Origin: a virus
Taxonomy: Duplodnaviria > Heunggongvirae > Uroviricota > Caudoviricetes
Direction: 5' to 3' (one strand)
IMG/VR virus record: IMGVR_UViG_2718218402_000002
DNA: 21,898 nucleotides
Below are positions 3,024-13,009 of the stretch, piece after piece; the stretch's first letter is position 1, and each line of letters begins with the position of its first letter. The position numbers were made by a program, and so were the translations under genes. The notes beneath the pieces are model-generated. The model did no database searches and was not told the DNA's origin. It saw only the letters and a list, made by a program, of their open reading frames with translations.

Positions 3024-3740
3024 TTAAATTCTGGTCCTTACAATATCAACCTGAAGATTCTTATCTTGTGCTGATTGATAAATGACAAACCTTTTACTAC
3101 CTGCATTGAAAGAAGTAGACAAAACCAGACAATTATCATAACGAGCAAGAACATAATACCAACCATCATTATAATTAATCATTTCATATTCTTTCTTAAA
3201 CTGCGGTTTGTAATATCCTGTCAGAAATGAAAAAAGCCAGAAATATGCCACAAAAGCAATCATCACAATCTCAAAAAAATGTTTTTTTATAAATGGCTTA
3301 TCATAGAAGCATGATACCGATAAAAATCGCCCATAAGATCTTATCGAAATTGTAACCGCCAGCGCAATCGCTGCTGACAGTAGCAAAAGAGGTACCTGAA
3401 TCTTCTGTCTCAATATAGAAAACTCAATAATTGCCGGCACAAACAATAATTCCACAGCAAAATAAAGGCGAAATACATTTAGCTCTTGCATAGAATGTTT
3501 TCTTTTCACTGCGAAAAAGAATACAACACCAATACCCCAACCGATAAGAAATATAGCAATGACGATAACTGCAAAAAATAAACTTCTGGCAACATCATCA
3601 ACACCTGCACCTACAATCCACCATGGGAAGCCGTAGTAAAAAGAAGTACCCCATCCATAGAAATAAGCACTCCCCCATCCAAGGCATCCCATGTAGGCAA
3701 TAAAAAGTGAAGAACTCCTGAGCAGTGCACCATCCTTCAT
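3024..3740 (-). CDS. Hypothetical polytopic membrane protein (moron between Q and holin)
   Basis: ORF 3024..3782 (252 aa). Preferred start is the ATG at 3740, preceded by GGGGTGG. Several hydrophobic segments N-terminally and a polar C-terminal domain. Markedly AT-rich versus flanking genes. No family recognised. Confidence 0.6.
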   Translation of the reverse strand: MKDGALLRSSSLFIAYMGCLGWGSAYFYGWGTSFYYGFPWWIVGAGVDDVARSLFFAVIVIAIFLIGWGIGVVFFFAVKRKHSMQELNVFRLYFAVELLFVPAIIEFSILRQKIQVPLLLLSAAIALAVTISIRSYGRFLSVSCFYDKPFIKKHFFEIVMIAFVAYFWLFSFLTGYYKPQFKKEYEMINYNDGWYYVLARYDNCLVLSTSFNAGSKRFVIYQSAQDKNLQVDIVRTRI

Positions 3741-7492: not shown

Positions 7493-7783
7493 TCATCTTT
7501 TAACTCCATATACCGCCAATACCCGTTTCATCGCGGCACTCTGGCGACACTCCTTAAAAATCAGGTTCGTGCTCATCTTTCCTTCCCGTTCTTCCCTGGT
7601 AGCAAACCGGTAATACACCGTTCGCCAGACCTTACCTTCGATAACCAGAAGACCTGCCCGTGCCATTTTAGCCGCGGCCTGATTTATGCTGGTTACTGTT
7701 GCGCCTGTTAGCGCGGCAACGTCCGGCGCACAGAAGCTATTATGCGTCCCCAGGTAATGAATAATTGCCTCTTTGCCCGTCAT
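7493..7783 (-). CDS. ren: Ren
   Basis: 96 aa, matches lambda Ren in size and position after P. Confidence 0.85.
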   Translation of the reverse strand: MTGKEAIIHYLGTHNSFCAPDVAALTGATVTSINQAAAKMARAGLLVIEGKVWRTVYYRFATREEREGKMSTNLIFKECRQSAAMKRVLAVYGVKR

Positions 7784-8481
7784 ACACTTGCTCCTTTCAG
7801 TCCGAACTTAGCTTTGATTTCTGCGATCTTCGCCAGAGCCTGTGCACGATTTAGAGGTCTACCGCCCATGACAGGAAGTTGTTTTACTGGTTCAGGGATC
7901 GCCTCACCACGGTTAATTCTCGCAGTCATATGGACAAGCTCATCTGCGGCCTTACGGCGTAATTCCGCATCAGTAAGCGCATTGGCCCGCATGTTCTGAT
8001 ACAGGTTGGTAACCAGCCAGTAGTGCGCGTTTGATTTCCACGGATAAGACTCCGCATCCGGATACAGGCCTCGCTTCCGGCAATACTCGTAAACCATATC
8101 AACCAGCTCGCTGACGTTTGGCAGTCCGGCGATAACGGATGCTTCTTCCCGGCACCATGCAACAAACTGCCCGGGTGATGGCAGAAATGGTCGATTCTGC
8201 CGACGGGCTACGCGCATTCCTGCGTTAACCTGTTCCATTGTGGTGATCCCGTTTTCCCGGAAAGCCAGAACCCACTGGCGGCGGATTTCGTTCAGTTCGT
8301 TCTGGTCACGGTTAGCCAGACTCGCCGGGAAAGTTGCCAGTAACTGGCTGAACACACCGTTGATGATCTGCGCTACCTGCTGTACCTGCGGCTTTTCGTC
8401 GTACTGTTCCGGCATGTTGTTGGCGATCCGACGCATCTGCTCACGGTCAAAGTTAACCATCTGTGCGGCGATGTTTTTCAT
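7780..8481 (-). CDS. P: Replication protein P (DnaB loader)
   Basis: 233 aa, near-identical to lambda P as recalled (MKNIAAQMVNFDREQMRRIANNMPEQYDEKPQ...). Confidence 0.95.
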   Translation of the reverse strand: MKNIAAQMVNFDREQMRRIANNMPEQYDEKPQVQQVAQIINGVFSQLLATFPASLANRDQNELNEIRRQWVLAFRENGITTMEQVNAGMRVARRQNRPFLPSPGQFVAWCREEASVIAGLPNVSELVDMVYEYCRKRGLYPDAESYPWKSNAHYWLVTNLYQNMRANALTDAELRRKAADELVHMTARINRGEAIPEPVKQLPVMGGRPLNRAQALAKIAEIKAKFGLKGASV

Positions 8482-9377
8482 AAATCCACCCCGTAAATCC
8501 AGTCAGTGTTTGTCAGGTCGAGTTTTGGTTTGCTGGCTGTCACGCCTGCCTGTTGCTTGTTACGGTTGATTTCGAGCTGGGTCCACTTGTCGCGGAGTTT
8601 GGCCGGGCTCAGCACGTTACCGGACCAGAAGTTGTCCTGGCATGCCCAGCGGAACAGTACGCACATGTCGCGATGGTTACGTCCGTCACGTTCACGCATC
8701 AGGCGGATATCGTTAGCCCACCCTGCAAAATTCGGTTTTCTGGCTGATGGCGCGATGGTCTTCACCATGTCAAACATCCACTCTGCGGCGGTCAGGTCTT
8801 CTGCTGTTCCCCACTTGCTGCCGCTCTGAATTGCAGCATCCGGTTTAACCACAGAAAGATCGTTTTCTGGCTGGTCAGAGGATTCGCCAGAATTCTCTGA
8901 CGAATAATCTTTTCTTTTTTCTTTTGTAATAGTGTCTTTTGTGTCCCCCTGTTTTGAGGGATAGCAATCCCCCAATTTGAGGGATGTTTTATCCCTCGTT
9001 TTAGGGGATTTTCCCTCGTTTTGAGGGATACACCATTCTGAGATGTTTTTATTTGGTCCAAACATGCCGCCTTGCTGCTTGATAATATTCATTCTGACGA
9101 GTTCTAACTTGGCTTCATTGCATCGTTTGACAGGTAACTTTGTAATCTCGCTAAGTTGAGAATCGGTGATTCTGTCCATAGGTTTATTCCACCCATAGGT
9201 TTTACGCAGAATGGCAAGCAGCACTTTAAACTGTCGCTTGGTCAGATCTGCGCCCGAATAAGCCTCAAGCAGCATATTTGATAGTCTGGCGTAACCATCA
9301 TCGAGATCTGCCACATTACGCTCCTGTTCGGCAAAGTTACCTCTGCCGAAGTTGAGTATTTTTGCTGTATTTGTCAT
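8478..9377 (-). CDS. O: Replication initiator O
   Basis: 299 aa, near-identical to lambda O (MTNTAKILNFGRGNFA...). Contains the origin iterons. Confidence 0.95.
   Translation of the reverse strand: MTNTAKILNFGRGNFAEQERNVADLDDGYARLSNMLLEAYSGADLTKRQFKVLLAILRKTYGWNKPMDRITDSQLSEITKLPVKRCNEAKLELVRMNIIKQQGGMFGPNKNISEWCIPQNEGKSPKTRDKTSLKLGDCYPSKQGDTKDTITKEKRKDYSSENSGESSDQPENDLSVVKPDAAIQSGSKWGTAEDLTAAEWMFDMVKTIAPSARKPNFAGWANDIRLMRERDGRNHRDMCVLFRWACQDNFWSGNVLSPAKLRDKWTQLEINRNKQQAGVTASKPKLDLTNTDWIYGVDL
8944..9030. repeat. ori-lambda iterons (four ~19-bp repeats) with adjacent AT-rich tract
   Basis: Four tandem repeats of the form TCCCTC-gtttt-GAGGGA at 8944-8963, 8968-8986, 8991-9009 and 9011-9030; AT-rich stretch at about 8905-8940. 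All inside O. Confidence 0.85.
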
Positions 9378-9409: not shown

Positions 9410-9706
9410 TCAGAATTGCATATCAATTTGCTTAGAGTCCCCGGCGGCCACCGGGGATTTTTTCTTTGTGATTCCATCAAGCGCATACTTAAAAGCCCTA
9501 CTAATCGGACTGATGTCTGATGCCATTCCGAAAGCACACAAGACCGAAGCAATAAACCTCCAGTCTGTTCTGCTTATCTTCGATTCATGACAGCCAATCA
9601 TCTTTGCCAGACCGCGCTGGGTAAGCGTTGACAGGTTGATGAGTAAATCTGTTTCTGCGCGATCAACGTCGCGCTGTGATAGTTTGCTGTAACTTGTTTG
9701 TGTCAT
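9410..9706 (-). CDS. cII: CII-like transcriptional activator (P22 c1 family)
   Basis: 98 aa, MTQTSYSKLSQRDVDRAETDLLINLSTLTQRGLAKMIGCHESKISR; HTH architecture of the cII family but not the lambda cII sequence. Immediately upstream of O. Confidence 0.75.
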   Translation of the reverse strand: MTQTSYSKLSQRDVDRAETDLLINLSTLTQRGLAKMIGCHESKISRTDWRFIASVLCAFGMASDISPISRAFKYALDGITKKKSPVAAGDSKQIDMQF

Positions 9707-9724
9707 TTCTTACTATTCCCATAG

Positions 9725-9758
9725 GTAAATAATCACTAACACTCATCTTTCGATGAGT
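9725..9758 (-). terminator. Possible tR1-like terminator
   Basis: 7-bp stem (ACTCATC/GATGAGT at 9741-9758) followed on the - strand by a moderately U-rich tract. Between nutR and cII. Confidence 0.35.
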
Positions 9759-9812: not shown

Positions 9813-10040
9813 TTATGCAGCCAGAAGGTTCTTTTTGCTTATTTCAAGCATTTCGCTTGCTTGATATTTGCCACCAGAAATCTCTTCGATTTTTGATGCG
9901 TATTTAGTTTTCCCAAAAAACTCAGTCTTAGGGAGGAAGCCGTTTTTGAGCCACTTATAGACAGCCCTTTCGCTAACTCCACAAGCCTTCGCAACTTCAG
10001 GGATGCCGACACCTTTAATCGGCTCATCAAGATTTTGCAT
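9813..10040 (-). CDS. cro: Cro-like repressor
   Basis: Track ORF 9813..10073; likely ATG at 10040 (75 aa). HTH GIPEVAKACGVSERAVYKWLK. Divergent from cI across the operator region. Confidence 0.75.
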   Translation of the reverse strand: MQNLDEPIKGVGIPEVAKACGVSERAVYKWLKNGFLPKTEFFGKTKYASKIEEISGGKYQASEMLEISKKNLLAA

Positions 10041-10055
10041 AGGAATACCCTTTTT

Positions 10056-10125
10056 CGTACTTTCAGTACGCATTATGATTGAACTGAAAGTTTTTGCAAG
10101 TGCTTTAGTATCGTACTCATGGTTC
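10056..10125. promoter_or_regulatory. OR region: three 13-bp palindromic operators with divergent pR and pRM
   Basis: GTACTTTCAGTAC (10057-10069), GAACTGAAAGTTT (10081-10093), GTACTCATGGTTC (10113-10125, over the cI ATG). Candidate pR on - strand: -35 TTGCAA (10094-10099), -10 CATAAT (revcomp of 10072-10077). Candidate pRM -10 TAGTAT (10106-10111). Confidence 0.55.
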
Positions 10126-10826
10126 AGAATGAAAAAGTGCGCAAAGAATTCGCCCAGCGGCTAGCGCAAGCCTGTAAAGAAGCTGGTCTTGATGAACATG
10201 GTAGGGGAATGGCCATAGCCCGTGCCCTTTCTCTTTCGTCCAAAGGCGTTAGCAAATGGTTTAATGCTGAGTCTTTACCACGCCAGGAAAAAATGAATGC
10301 GCTTGCGAAATTTCTAAACGTTGATGTTGTTTGGCTTCAGCACGGCACTTCGTTAAATGGAGCGAATGATGAAGATACTTTTTCAATTGTTGGCAAATTA
10401 AAAAAAGGGTTAGTGCGCGTGGTTGGTGAGGCAATTCTTGGTGTTGATGGTGCCATCGAGATGACCGAAGAGCGCGATGGGTGGCTCAAGATTTATAGCG
10501 ATGATCCAGATGCCTTTGGTCTTCGTGTAAAAGGAGACAGCATGTGGCCCAGAATTAAATCAGGAGAATATGTACTCATTGAGCCTAACACCAAAGTATT
10601 CCCAGGTGATGAAGTGTTTGTCAGAACCATTGAAGGGCACAACATGATCAAGGTTCTTGGCTATGACAGAGACGGAGAATACCAATTTACAAGCATCAAT
10701 CAAGACCACAGGCCAATAACGTTGCCTTATCATCAAGTAGCAAAGGTGGAGTATGTGGCTGGTATTTTGAAGCAATCTCGCCACCTAGATGACATCGAGG
10801 CAAGGGAATGGATTAAAAGTTCGTGA
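10119..10826 (+). CDS. cI: CI prophage repressor (HTH plus S24 LexA-like autopeptidase domain)
   Basis: 235 aa. C-terminal domain has the GDSM Ser motif and downstream Lys typical of RecA-stimulated autocleaving repressors. The ATG sits inside the third operator, suggesting a leaderless pRM transcript. Confidence 0.9.
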   Translation: MVQNEKVRKEFAQRLAQACKEAGLDEHGRGMAIARALSLSSKGVSKWFNAESLPRQEKMNALAKFLNVDVVWLQHGTSLNGANDEDTFSIVGKLKKGLVRVVGEAILGVDGAIEMTEERDGWLKIYSDDPDAFGLRVKGDSMWPRIKSGEYVLIEPNTKVFPGDEVFVRTIEGHNMIKVLGYDRDGEYQFTSINQDHRPITLPYHQVAKVEYVAGILKQSRHLDDIEAREWIKSS

Positions 10827-10923: not shown

Positions 10924-11466
10924 GTGGCTAAAAAAGGCGACTTTAAGCCTACCCAGAAAGAGGTTGACCAAGCTATTACTCGCTTGAAAAAAGTAACTTT
11001 TAGCGGAGTTTCGTGGACCGGAAGTGAGGGACGAACCCCAATCTGGTTTAAATTGGATCTCAAAGCTTTTGATGAAATTGGCAACCCAATCACAGGCATA
11101 AGATTTATGCTTCACTGGCGTTCTCCTATCGTTGAAGGGGTGGATATAGTGAAGCTTTCATTTGTGATGTTTCTTCATGACAGGCGCATTTACGCGCTTG
11201 ACCCGTACCCTGCGCATAACAAGTCACACCGTAATAAATCTATAGTGCACCATCCAGATTTTGTTGAGGTGGCTCGAGGTCCTCACTATCACATGTACTT
11301 CGAATCAGCTGGGGAAGAAATTGCACTCAAGCTTGAAACGAACATCAAGCCAGATGATTTTTTTGGCTACTGGAATTATTTTTGCGAGGCGCTTAATATC
11401 ATATATGAAGGCAGCCCACCTTTACCGAATCAAGATAAATCAGGTCAGCTATCATGGGAAATGTAA
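10924..11466 (+). CDS. Hypothetical protein A of the cI-downstream cassette (rexA-position)
   Basis: 180 aa ORF with GTG start and no obvious SD; the first in-frame ATG would give 119 aa. His-rich segment HNKSHRNKSIVHHPDF...PHYHMY. No family recognised. Lower GC than neighbours. Confidence 0.5.
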   Translation: MAKKGDFKPTQKEVDQAITRLKKVTFSGVSWTGSEGRTPIWFKLDLKAFDEIGNPITGIRFMLHWRSPIVEGVDIVKLSFVMFLHDRRIYALDPYPAHNKSHRNKSIVHHPDFVEVARGPHYHMYFESAGEEIALKLETNIKPDDFFGYWNYFCEALNIIYEGSPPLPNQDKSGQLSWEM

Positions 11467-12230
11467 CGTGTTCAACAGTCATATCTAAGCTCGGGTTTGA
11501 ATGCCACCCAATGAGCGACACGTTGCTGCGCGTTATTAGTCCCTTCACATACTACGATGATTGTGAGCAGATAAGCGTATTCGTTCAAGAGATGAGTGGT
11601 CAGTATAGGGTTACAGACTACTGCGATACATTGATGAATATTGAATCACGCGGCATCCACCTGACTAAAAAGAAAATTGATCTGATCAGGTCATCACTCG
11701 CTTCGCAAGGAATTTCATTAAATGACTCTGGAGAGATATCTGCGTGGGCAGATGAGTCGTCCGTTGGACAGGTAACTGCAAATGTTATTCGTGGTGGGAT
11801 TCTTGCATCCGCCCAAACTGCTGATTGGTATGCTGAGGTCAAAGACGATAAGTTCGAAAAATGTGTAATCAGTTACTTAAAATCAGCAGGGCTTGGGAAG
11901 CGACTAGCCTTAAAGGAAAAAGTGAAAGGTATTAGTGGGCATAACATTACTGTTCCGTTAACGCTAAGGAATGAGTCTCGACTAATACCACCAAAACGCG
12001 GGTTTACGGTAAGCCTTGCCAGCAGTAAAGGATGGAATACTGCCCACTCAACAGTTGGGAAGATTGTTGACTTAAGTCAGGTCGTTCCTGACATAAACAA
12101 TAGATTTGTAATAGTTGACAGCGATGGGTTAACACCTGAGCTACAGCAACTATCACTACTATTTAATGATACCGCACGAGTGTTGCCATTCCATACCAGA
12201 GACTCTTGGATTGACTCTCTGGTAGCCTAG
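11454..12230 (+). CDS. Hypothetical protein B of the cI-downstream cassette (rexB-position)
   Basis: 258 aa. The ATG at 11454 overlaps the stop of protein A by 13 nt (alternative ATG at 11511). Soluble-looking, no family recognised. Confidence 0.55.
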   Translation: MGNVTCSTVISKLGFECHPMSDTLLRVISPFTYYDDCEQISVFVQEMSGQYRVTDYCDTLMNIESRGIHLTKKKIDLIRSSLASQGISLNDSGEISAWADESSVGQVTANVIRGGILASAQTADWYAEVKDDKFEKCVISYLKSAGLGKRLALKEKVKGISGHNITVPLTLRNESRLIPPKRGFTVSLASSKGWNTAHSTVGKIVDLSQVVPDINNRFVIVDSDGLTPELQQLSLLFNDTARVLPFHTRDSWIDSLVA

Positions 12231-12231
12231 A

Positions 12232-12262
12232 AAAACCCGGCCTCTGCGCCGGGTTTTCTTTA
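12232..12262 (+). terminator. Intrinsic terminator ending the cI/cassette transcript
   Basis: AAAAA, then CCCGGCC-tctg-cGCCGGG, then TTTTCTTT, directly after the stop of protein B. Symmetric A/T flanks, so possibly bidirectional. Confidence 0.7.
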
Positions 12263-12430: not shown

Positions 12431-12476
12431 CGTACTTATAGTTCTTGATAATATCGAACTATTAGTTCATTATTAT
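12431..12476 (+). promoter_or_regulatory. Candidate OL/pL
   Basis: Operator-like palindromes related to OR: GTACTTATAGTTC (12432-12444) and GAACTATTAGTTC (12456-12468). -35 TTGATA (12445-12450) and a -10-like CATTAT/TATTAT about 17 bp downstream. Upstream of nutL and N. Confidence 0.45.
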
Positions 12477-12519
12477 CGCCATCAGCAGGATGCTGGCAGC
12501 CAAACGGAACAGATTGGCA

Positions 12520-12555
12520 GGCTCTTTAACTTCGATGGGGCGCTGACAAAGCGCA
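12520..12555 (+). promoter_or_regulatory. nutL (boxA plus boxB)
   Basis: boxA GCTCTTTAAC (12521-12530), then boxB GCGCT-GACAA-AGCGC (12540-12554), a 5-bp stem with GACAA loop matching the P22 nutL boxB as recalled. Confidence 0.7.
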
Positions 12556-12673: not shown

Positions 12674-13009
12674 ATGACGGTAATCGTGTACGGGAAATCA
12701 ACATTTGCAGGAAATGCCAAAACTCGCCGTCATGAGCGGCGCAGAAAGCTGGCTATCGAGCGTGATGCTATATGCAACATCATCGATTCGATCTTCGGCA
12801 CAGACAGTGAGGAACCTGTTCAGGAAGCCCCGAGAAAACGTTTAAGCCTTTCTGAAAAAGCAATATCACTCGGAAGCCTTCGCTGCCAGAAGGCAGAAGA
12901 AGTCGAGCGTAAACAGAACCGTATTTACTACCGCAAGCCACGCAGTGAAATGGGTGTGACTTGTGTTGGTCGCCAGAAAATGAAATTAGGCAGCAAACCA
13001 CTTATTTGA
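12674..13009 (+). CDS. N: Antiterminator N (P22 gene 24-like)
   Basis: Track ORF 12590..13009; ATG at 12674 preceded by GAGGAAAA. N-terminal arginine-rich motif GNAKTRRHERRRKLAIERD matches the P22 N RNA-binding motif as recalled. Confidence 0.85.
   Translation: MTVIVYGKSTFAGNAKTRRHERRRKLAIERDAICNIIDSIFGTDSEEPVQEAPRKRLSLSEKAISLGSLRCQKAEEVERKQNRIYYRKPRSEMGVTCVGRQKMKLGSKPLI

Follow-up and report, generated by a model that had tools for sequence, protein, structure and literature searches.

A lambdoid Escherichia coli prophage with the 933W right operator and a probable leaderless cI mRNA

Three related palindromes lie across the divergent cro–cI region of a lambdoid prophage, the third of them over the cI start codon, and they raise the questions of which immunity system they belong to and where the cI mRNA begins. 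A first-pass annotation, made from the sequence alone, described them as 13-bp operators of the GTACT-N3-AGTAC type with related sites at the presumed OL, proposed that the cI mRNA is leaderless as at lambda PRM, and suggested that the locus could represent a distinct immunity type. We conclude that the region is very probably the right operator of a lambdoid E. coli prophage with the 933W immunity module, whose cI would be translated from a leaderless mRNA. The element has been described before: the 933W operators, their number, and the promoters are on record, and the cI start can be read from published Cappable-seq tables.

The cro–cI operators and their counterparts in phage 933W

The window, by which we mean the whole 21.9-kb stretch (21,898 nucleotides) that was analyzed, contains an early region with the lambdoid gene order in reverse: P, O, cII, cro, cI, two plus-strand ORFs, and N (Table 1). 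The gap between cro and cI is 78 bp, and three related dyads span this gap together with the first cI codons. The remainder of the window is similar to lambda-like phages (e.g., 2B8, 434, and HK140), which places the 933W immunity module described below on a lambda-like backbone, and no stx gene was found in the window.

Table 1. Features of the immunity region in the window, with coordinates of their 933W counterparts
Feature	Window position	Strand	Sequence	933W position	Description and basis
P	7780-8481	-			ORF list and Pfam
O	8478-9377	-			ORF list and Pfam
cII	9410-9706	-			Phage_CII family member (Pfam)
cro	9813-10040	-			75 aa; ORF; 100% identity to 933W Cro; HTH families (Pfam)
OR1	10056-10070		CGTACTTTCAGTACG	12831-12845	Perfect 6-N3-6 palindrome; over the PR start; identical to 933W oR1
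PR +1	10064	-			24-nt cro leader; by homology to EDL933 1346320(+)
PR promoter	10072-10099	-		12802-12829	-35 TTGCAA (10099-10094), 16-nt spacer, -10 CATAAT (10077-10072); promoter scan, 9/12
OR2	10080-10094		TGAACTGAAAGTTTT	12807-12821	Identical to 933W oR2; contains the sole half-site without G at position 2
PRM promoter	10084-10111	+		12790-12817	Putative -35 CTGAAA (10084-10089), 16-nt spacer, -10 TAGTAT (10106-10111)
OR3	10112-10126		CGTACTCATGGTTCA	12775-12789	Central base is the A of the cI ATG; identical to 933W oR3
PRM +1	10119	+			Predicted by homology to EDL933 1346265(-)
cI	10119-10826	+			235 aa; HTH and Peptidase_S24 (Pfam); 98% identity to 933W CI
Two cargo ORFs	10924-11466, 11454-12230	+			Overlapping; in the rexAB position; Pfam DUF6978 (weak), DUF1828
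tM-like terminator	12234-12257	+			Intrinsic terminator at the end of the cI operon; homologous to 933W tM
OL2	12431-12445		CGTACTTATAGTTCT	9727-9741	Promoter-distal; 933W counterpart CGTACCAATAGTTCT
PL promoter	12445-12473	+			-35 TTGATA, 17-nt spacer, -10 CATTAT; predicted +1 12481; promoter scan
OL1	12455-12469		CGAACTATTAGTTCA	9703-9717	Inside the PL spacer; 933W counterpart CGAACTATTGGTTCA
nutL boxB	12540-12554		GCGCTGACAAAGCGC
N	12674-13009	+			ORF list and Pfam

Comparison with phage 933W accounted for both regulators and for all three palindromes. Cro is identical to 933W Cro at 75/75 residues, and CI matches 933W CI at 231/235 residues (98%) with residues 1-87 unchanged, including S41, K42, and K46 of the recognition helix (the residue numbering agrees with PMC3317979). 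An alignment of the right operator over 121 bp revealed three substitutions between the window and 933W (at window positions 10048, 10071, and 10078), all outside the operators, the promoter hexamers, and the ATG. The 933W GenBank record (AF125520) annotates oR3, pM, pR, oR2, and oR1 in its cI–cro gap, and these features map exactly onto OR3, PRM, PR, OR2, and OR1 of Table 1, with the operators separated by the same 24 and 32 bp.

The 933W repressor is described as having five natural sites of 15 bp each, with A and C fixed at positions 4 and 5 and with G at position 2 of every half-site but one in OR2; position 6 is T in 7/10 half-sites and C in 3/10, and OR1, the tightest of the five, deviates from the consensus at 3, 3′, and 7′ (Bullwinkle et al. 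2012, PMC3317979). The five sites that we took from the 933W sequence agree with every one of these counts, which identifies them as the characterized operators. Footprinting of the 933W sites and assignment of PRM are reportedly due to Koudelka 2004, Tyler 2004, and Bullwinkle 2011, and Plunkett 1999 is said to be among the sources for the phage 933W immunity region. The proposal that the palindromes are CI/Cro operators thus holds, since they are identical to the annotated 933W oR1-oR3 and fit the published five-site description. Their sites were placed correctly, but the accepted length is 15 bp, not 13 bp, and half-site position 3 can be T or A. On this basis, CI of the window prophage would bind the OR and OL sites, with Cro expected to use the same sites, and the prophage is predicted to be homo-immune with 933W, given the identical CI DNA-binding domain and OR operators.

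The motif as originally written is not enriched in the window: when GTACT-N3-AGTAC is relaxed to three mismatches, which is what inclusion of OR2 takes, there are 48 matches against 48.9 expected. A degenerate version, GWACTNNNRGTW, gives 8 strand-hits that fall on exactly the five OR and OL sites (0.67 expected in 21.9 kb; reached in 0/100 shuffles), and it has no match elsewhere in the 21.9 kb. This motif was chosen post hoc, with the sites already seen and with the W and Y/R degeneracy required, so we place the weight on identity with the annotated 933W operators and on conservation across genera. The core of OR1 (10059-10067, ACTTTCAGT) and that of OR2 (10083-10091, ACTGAAAGT) are exact reverse complements, i.e., one 9-mer in two orientations.

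The cI start and its conservation in relatives

The −10-like hexamer that had been noted upstream of cI is TAGTAT, which ends 7 nt before the ATG, and neither a Shine-Dalgarno-like sequence nor a purine-rich run was found between the two. Combined with CTGAAA across a 16-nt spacer, it forms a putative PRM that scores 8/12 and coincides with 933W pM. A consensus promoter scan called PR and PL and left PRM uncalled because it is too weak; lambda PRM also scores 8/12.

A direct indication of where cI transcription begins comes from genome-wide Cappable-seq of the 933W lysogen EDL933 under eight growth conditions (PMC10469882, Table S5). In the EDL933 record (NZ_CP008957), cI occupies 1345558-1346265(-) and cro 1346344-1346571(+). 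A single start site is associated with cI, at 1346265(-), and was recorded in 8/8 conditions with a strong signal (57-252), while the cro start at 1346320(+) and the leftward (PL) start at 1343173(-) were likewise recorded in 8/8 conditions (PMC10469882). Checking these positions on the sequence, we found that 1346265 corresponds to the A of the cI ATG, that 1346320 lies one base off the OR1 center and leaves a cro leader of 24 nt, and that 1343173 lies 8 nt past the homologous PL CATTAT. We carried the starts over to the window by homology (PRM +1 at 10119, PR +1 at 10064(-), and PL +1 at 12481), the PRM transfer being based on sequence identity across the −10, OR3, and the cI start (window 10079-10140). 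The leaderless reading is therefore backed by experiment on a near-identical prophage, and the EDL933 data support a cI mRNA in the window that would begin on the A of the ATG. We found no accessible paper stating that 933W cI is leaderless.

We consider it somewhat probable that cI is also transcribed from a CII-dependent PRE located in the start of cII, which would supply cI mRNA with a long leader during establishment and would complement, and be compatible with, a leaderless PRM transcript. Downstream of the block TTGC-N6-TTGT (9684-9697(+)) come the cII start codon (9704-9706) and then TACTAT (9711-9716, 17 nt after the N6 block), the cII product belongs to the Phage_CII family, and lambda PRE has the same layout. 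Against this, TTGC-N6-TTGC with one mismatch occurs in the window at the chance rate (33 vs 33.3 expected), which leaves the positional argument alone. The EDL933 lysogen tables list no PRE start in the homologous 60 bp, and since CII is absent in a lysogen this is the expected result and is uninformative. The same tables contain an antisense start just downstream of cII (EDL933 record position 1347028 (-), two conditions), whose position fits a lambda oop-RNA-like promoter.

Relatives of the switch retain the arrangement around the cI start. Scanning one genome per species for full-length relatives (44-97% protein identity) and placing the sites using known cI starts, we found them in seven genera (E. 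albertii, Pectobacterium, Photorhabdus, Salmonella, Cedecea, Serratia, and Dryocola); another relative, from Salmonella phage Si3, shows 87% identity. Site centers at 0, −32, and −56 from the A of the cI ATG are kept in these relatives, with a 1-nt insertion shifting the two upstream centers to −33 and −57 in E. albertii, and in each of them the OR3 center lies at position 0 of the ATG. The right half of OR3 thus coincides with the first cI codons (ATG GTW CA) in every relative, and K42 and K46 of the recognition helix are kept. The hexamer 7 nt before the ATG reads TAnTAT in 9/10 aligned relatives (TAGTAT, TACTAT, TAATAT, or TATTAT) and TATAGT in the tenth, so that five positions of TAnTAT are fixed while all four bases occur at the third, and the 4 nt upstream of TTTAnTAT vary freely. 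The exception is a Salmonella chromosomal relative (strain s1), where TATAGT lies 8 nt before the ATG and where OR2 was not found at one mismatch or fewer. No Shine-Dalgarno sequence precedes the cI ATG in the relatives.

We also weighed whether cI might not be leaderless at all, with transcription starting either near 10130, from TTGCAA (10094-10099) and CATGGT across an 18-nt spacer, or at an upstream site that leaves a leader. A start near 10130 would put OR2 at a lambda-like −43, as compared with −32, which is odd for an activator; TTGCAA reads alike on both strands, the scan does not call PRM, and the record of Stx2 converting phage I annotates another putative cI promoter. Yet the only cI start in EDL933 falls on the A of the ATG in all eight conditions, an mRNA begun near 10130 would lack the cI ATG and its first ATG would open an 11-codon out-of-frame ORF, TAnTAT 7 nt ahead of the ATG is maintained from genus to genus amid variable neighbors, and CTGAAA-16-TAGTAT equals lambda PRM in score. 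We consider a cI mRNA with a leader or a downstream start highly unlikely, and the specific alternative PRM with a start near 10130 is ruled out by the start-site data together with the loss of the ATG from the mRNA. Stx2 converting phage I is annotated with "putative operators" of 17 bp and with a cI promoter located within the cI ORF; this annotation clashes with the start-site data, and we judged it less reliable than AF125520. The favored reading remains a cI mRNA that begins on its own start codon.

The left operator, cargo genes, and immunity specificity

Related sites had also been expected at OL, and we found two of them rather than three. OL2 adjoins the PL −35 and OL1 fills the PL spacer, the two being 24 bp apart as in 933W. 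No third OL site was found in the window, where the sequence 32 bp upstream deviates from the 13-mer at 5 bases. A third OL site with one mismatch lies 32-33 bp upstream of OL2 in the relatives from Salmonella phage Si3 (record position 3270-3282), Pectobacterium, and Photorhabdus; it mirrors the 32 + 24 bp spacing of OR, and the window and 933W are without such a site.

Three bases differ between the OL sites of the window and those of 933W: T replaces C at position 6 of OL2 and at position 6′ of OL1, and position 7 of OL2 is changed. In published mutagenesis, sites with C at position 6 were bound over 2.5-fold more tightly (PMC3317979), and since the window has T there, CI may bind its OL sites slightly more weakly and hence may repress PL slightly less.

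Between cI and OL, the gene content is not that of 933W. The two ORFs in this interval are probably co-transcribed with cI, judging from their position. The hairpin of the tM-like terminator (−17 kcal/mol, z = −4.5) is followed by UUUUCUUU. The two ORFs gave weak PADLOC matches to PDC-M24, a candidate defense system (A, E = 1.5e-3; B, E = 6e-7), and may be lysogen-expressed defense cargo. N carries a P22-type arginine-rich motif, GNAKTRRHERRRKLAIERD, and differs from 933W N.

In sum, the window shares with 933W its Cro, the CI DNA-binding domain, the three OR operators, the PR, PRM, and PL hexamers, the presence of two OL sites, tM, and the nutL boxB. It differs in the genes between cI and OL (stk and three others in 933W; DUF6978-like and DUF1828 ORFs here), the N gene, the OL bases, the three OR point differences, and its lambda-like backbone without stx in the window.

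The module is widespread. A megablast search with the cro–cI region returned 150 phage records, about 140 of them at 95-99% identity and mostly from Stx-converting phages, and OR plus the N-terminal coding region of cI is present at ≥95% identity in 426/5426 complete E. coli genomes, with strains 13E0767, C7, and C3 among those at 100%; the exact cI-cargo-OL arrangement occurs in 22 genomes. H-19B, BP-4795, and Stx1a phages share only the C-terminal part of CI (residues 104-235, 98.5% identical) and have a different N-terminal DNA-binding domain, a domain-level repressor mosaic.

These comparisons bear on the suggestion of a distinct immunity type, i.e., a repressor and operators of an undescribed type. 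The half-site is unlike those of 434 and P22, as had been noted. It is likewise unlike the lambda half-site (TATCACC..., quoted in PMC5977221), and the OL sites carry the three substitutions relative to 933W. The suggestion nevertheless fails on the regulators themselves, since Cro, CI residues 1-87, and all three OR operators are identical to those of 933W, while the OL substitutions affect positions 6 and 7, where changes are tolerated, and the module recurs at ≥95% identity in the 426 E. coli genomes as well as in the roughly 140 phage records. We therefore give a new immunity specificity almost no credence.

That the palindromes are chance occurrences, or RNA hairpin or terminator elements and not protein-binding sites, is weaker still and in our judgment practically negligible: GTACT-N3-AGTAC is not enriched at up to three mismatches and a terminator scan flagged a short hairpin at OR1 with a T-rich stretch behind it, but the refined motif occurs only at OR and OL, position and sequence are conserved across genera and identical to experimentally characterized operators, and PR starts within OR1, so that its hairpin is not transcribed intact from PR and the flag is a false positive due to the palindrome. 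The palindromes are best read as the 933W operators.

Switch geometry compared with known systems

The operators and promoters suggest how the switch would work. Dimers of CI, and by extension of Cro, would bind 15-bp dyads of the form xG(T/A)AC(T/C)-N3-(A/G)GT(T/A)Cx. With OR1 over the PR start and OR2 within the PR spacer, joint occupancy of these two sites would shut off cro and the lytic genes. Since OR3 is centered on the PRM start, its occupancy would autorepress cI, and transcription from PRM on the A of the cI ATG would yield a cI message translated leaderless, as at lambda PRM. The two sites at the PL −35 and spacer would repress N and the leftward operon. The OR1 center lies at PR +2 and the OR3 center at PRM +1, in agreement with the proposal that the third operator spans the cI ATG.

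For 933W, the affinities, activation from OR2, repression from OR3, lack of cooperativity, and lack of OL3 are taken from the literature. The relative affinities are 1 for OR1, 13.6 for OR2, and 26.4 for OR3, the repressor binds non-cooperatively, and there is no OL3. The low repressor level and the "hair-trigger" induction of 933W lysogens have been explained in the literature by partial OR3 occupancy that limits cI transcription.

OR2 (center 10087) lies at −23 of PR and at −32 of PRM, over the putative PRM −35, and the palindromic TTGCAA (10094-10099) that serves as the PR −35 falls inside the PRM spacer. This makes −32 an awkward position for the reported OR2-dependent activation of PRM. 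It is conceivable, although we think it improbable, that OR2-bound activation of PRM in the 933W/HK022 family differs from the lambda contact with sigma region 4 at −42. Activation may proceed by direct contact, by the repressor substituting for −35 recognition, or by relief of RNA polymerase occupancy at PR.

Phage HK022 follows the same plan with different specificity. Its CI is 33% identical over 177 aligned residues, starts with MVQ, and has the recognition helix ...K..SKWFN, which places it in the same repressor family, and its Cro is 46% identical to that of the window. The half-site core GAAC(T/C) is the same as in the window. The HK022 OR sites are TGAACTTATGGTTCA, GGAACTGATAGTACA, and TGAACTTATGGTTCA, with centers 24 and 33 bp apart; the third spans the cI ATG, which TATAGT precedes by 7 nt. 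The operator sequences and the CI C-terminal domain differ, and with operators and proteins diverged in this way HK022 constitutes a separate immunity. Since HK022 shares the plan, the 0/−32/−56-type architecture is, judged from sequence comparison, a family trait of 933W/HK022-type repressors.

The resemblance to lambda is one of logic: cI and cro diverge, the operator has three parts, PRM is weak and repressor-dependent with its +1 at the A of the cI AUG, and cI is autorepressed through OR3. Lambda sites are 17 bp and unrelated in sequence, with OR3 in the PRM spacer. Here OR3 is centered on +1 and OR2 at −32, whereas the lambda centers are at about −20 and about −42, and 55 bp separate the PR start from the PRM start, in contrast to about 82 bp in lambda. 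Lambda also has OL3, cooperative binding, and OL-OR looping, all three of which are lacking in 933W according to the literature. Set against a lambda-type switch, with OR2 near −42 and a third OL site, the window has OR2 at −32 and no OL3.

A leaderless regulator mRNA also occurs in the PaaR2/YdaS switch of CP-933P, where a PRM-like promoter within a short divergent region drives a cI-like regulator (PMC8630535). The leaderless mRNA was demonstrated there by 5′-RACE and N-terminal sequencing (PMC8630535). The proteins and operators are unrelated to those described here, and the switch is part of a toxin-antitoxin locus.

The locus adds no new biology, and its value lies in annotation, as it provides exact coordinates for OR1-3, OL1-2, PR, PRM, PL, and tM. 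The prophage combines the 933W immunity module with a lambda-like backbone, no stx in the window, and other cargo between cI and OL. About 8% of complete E. coli genomes contain this module, which governs Stx2 expression in EHEC.
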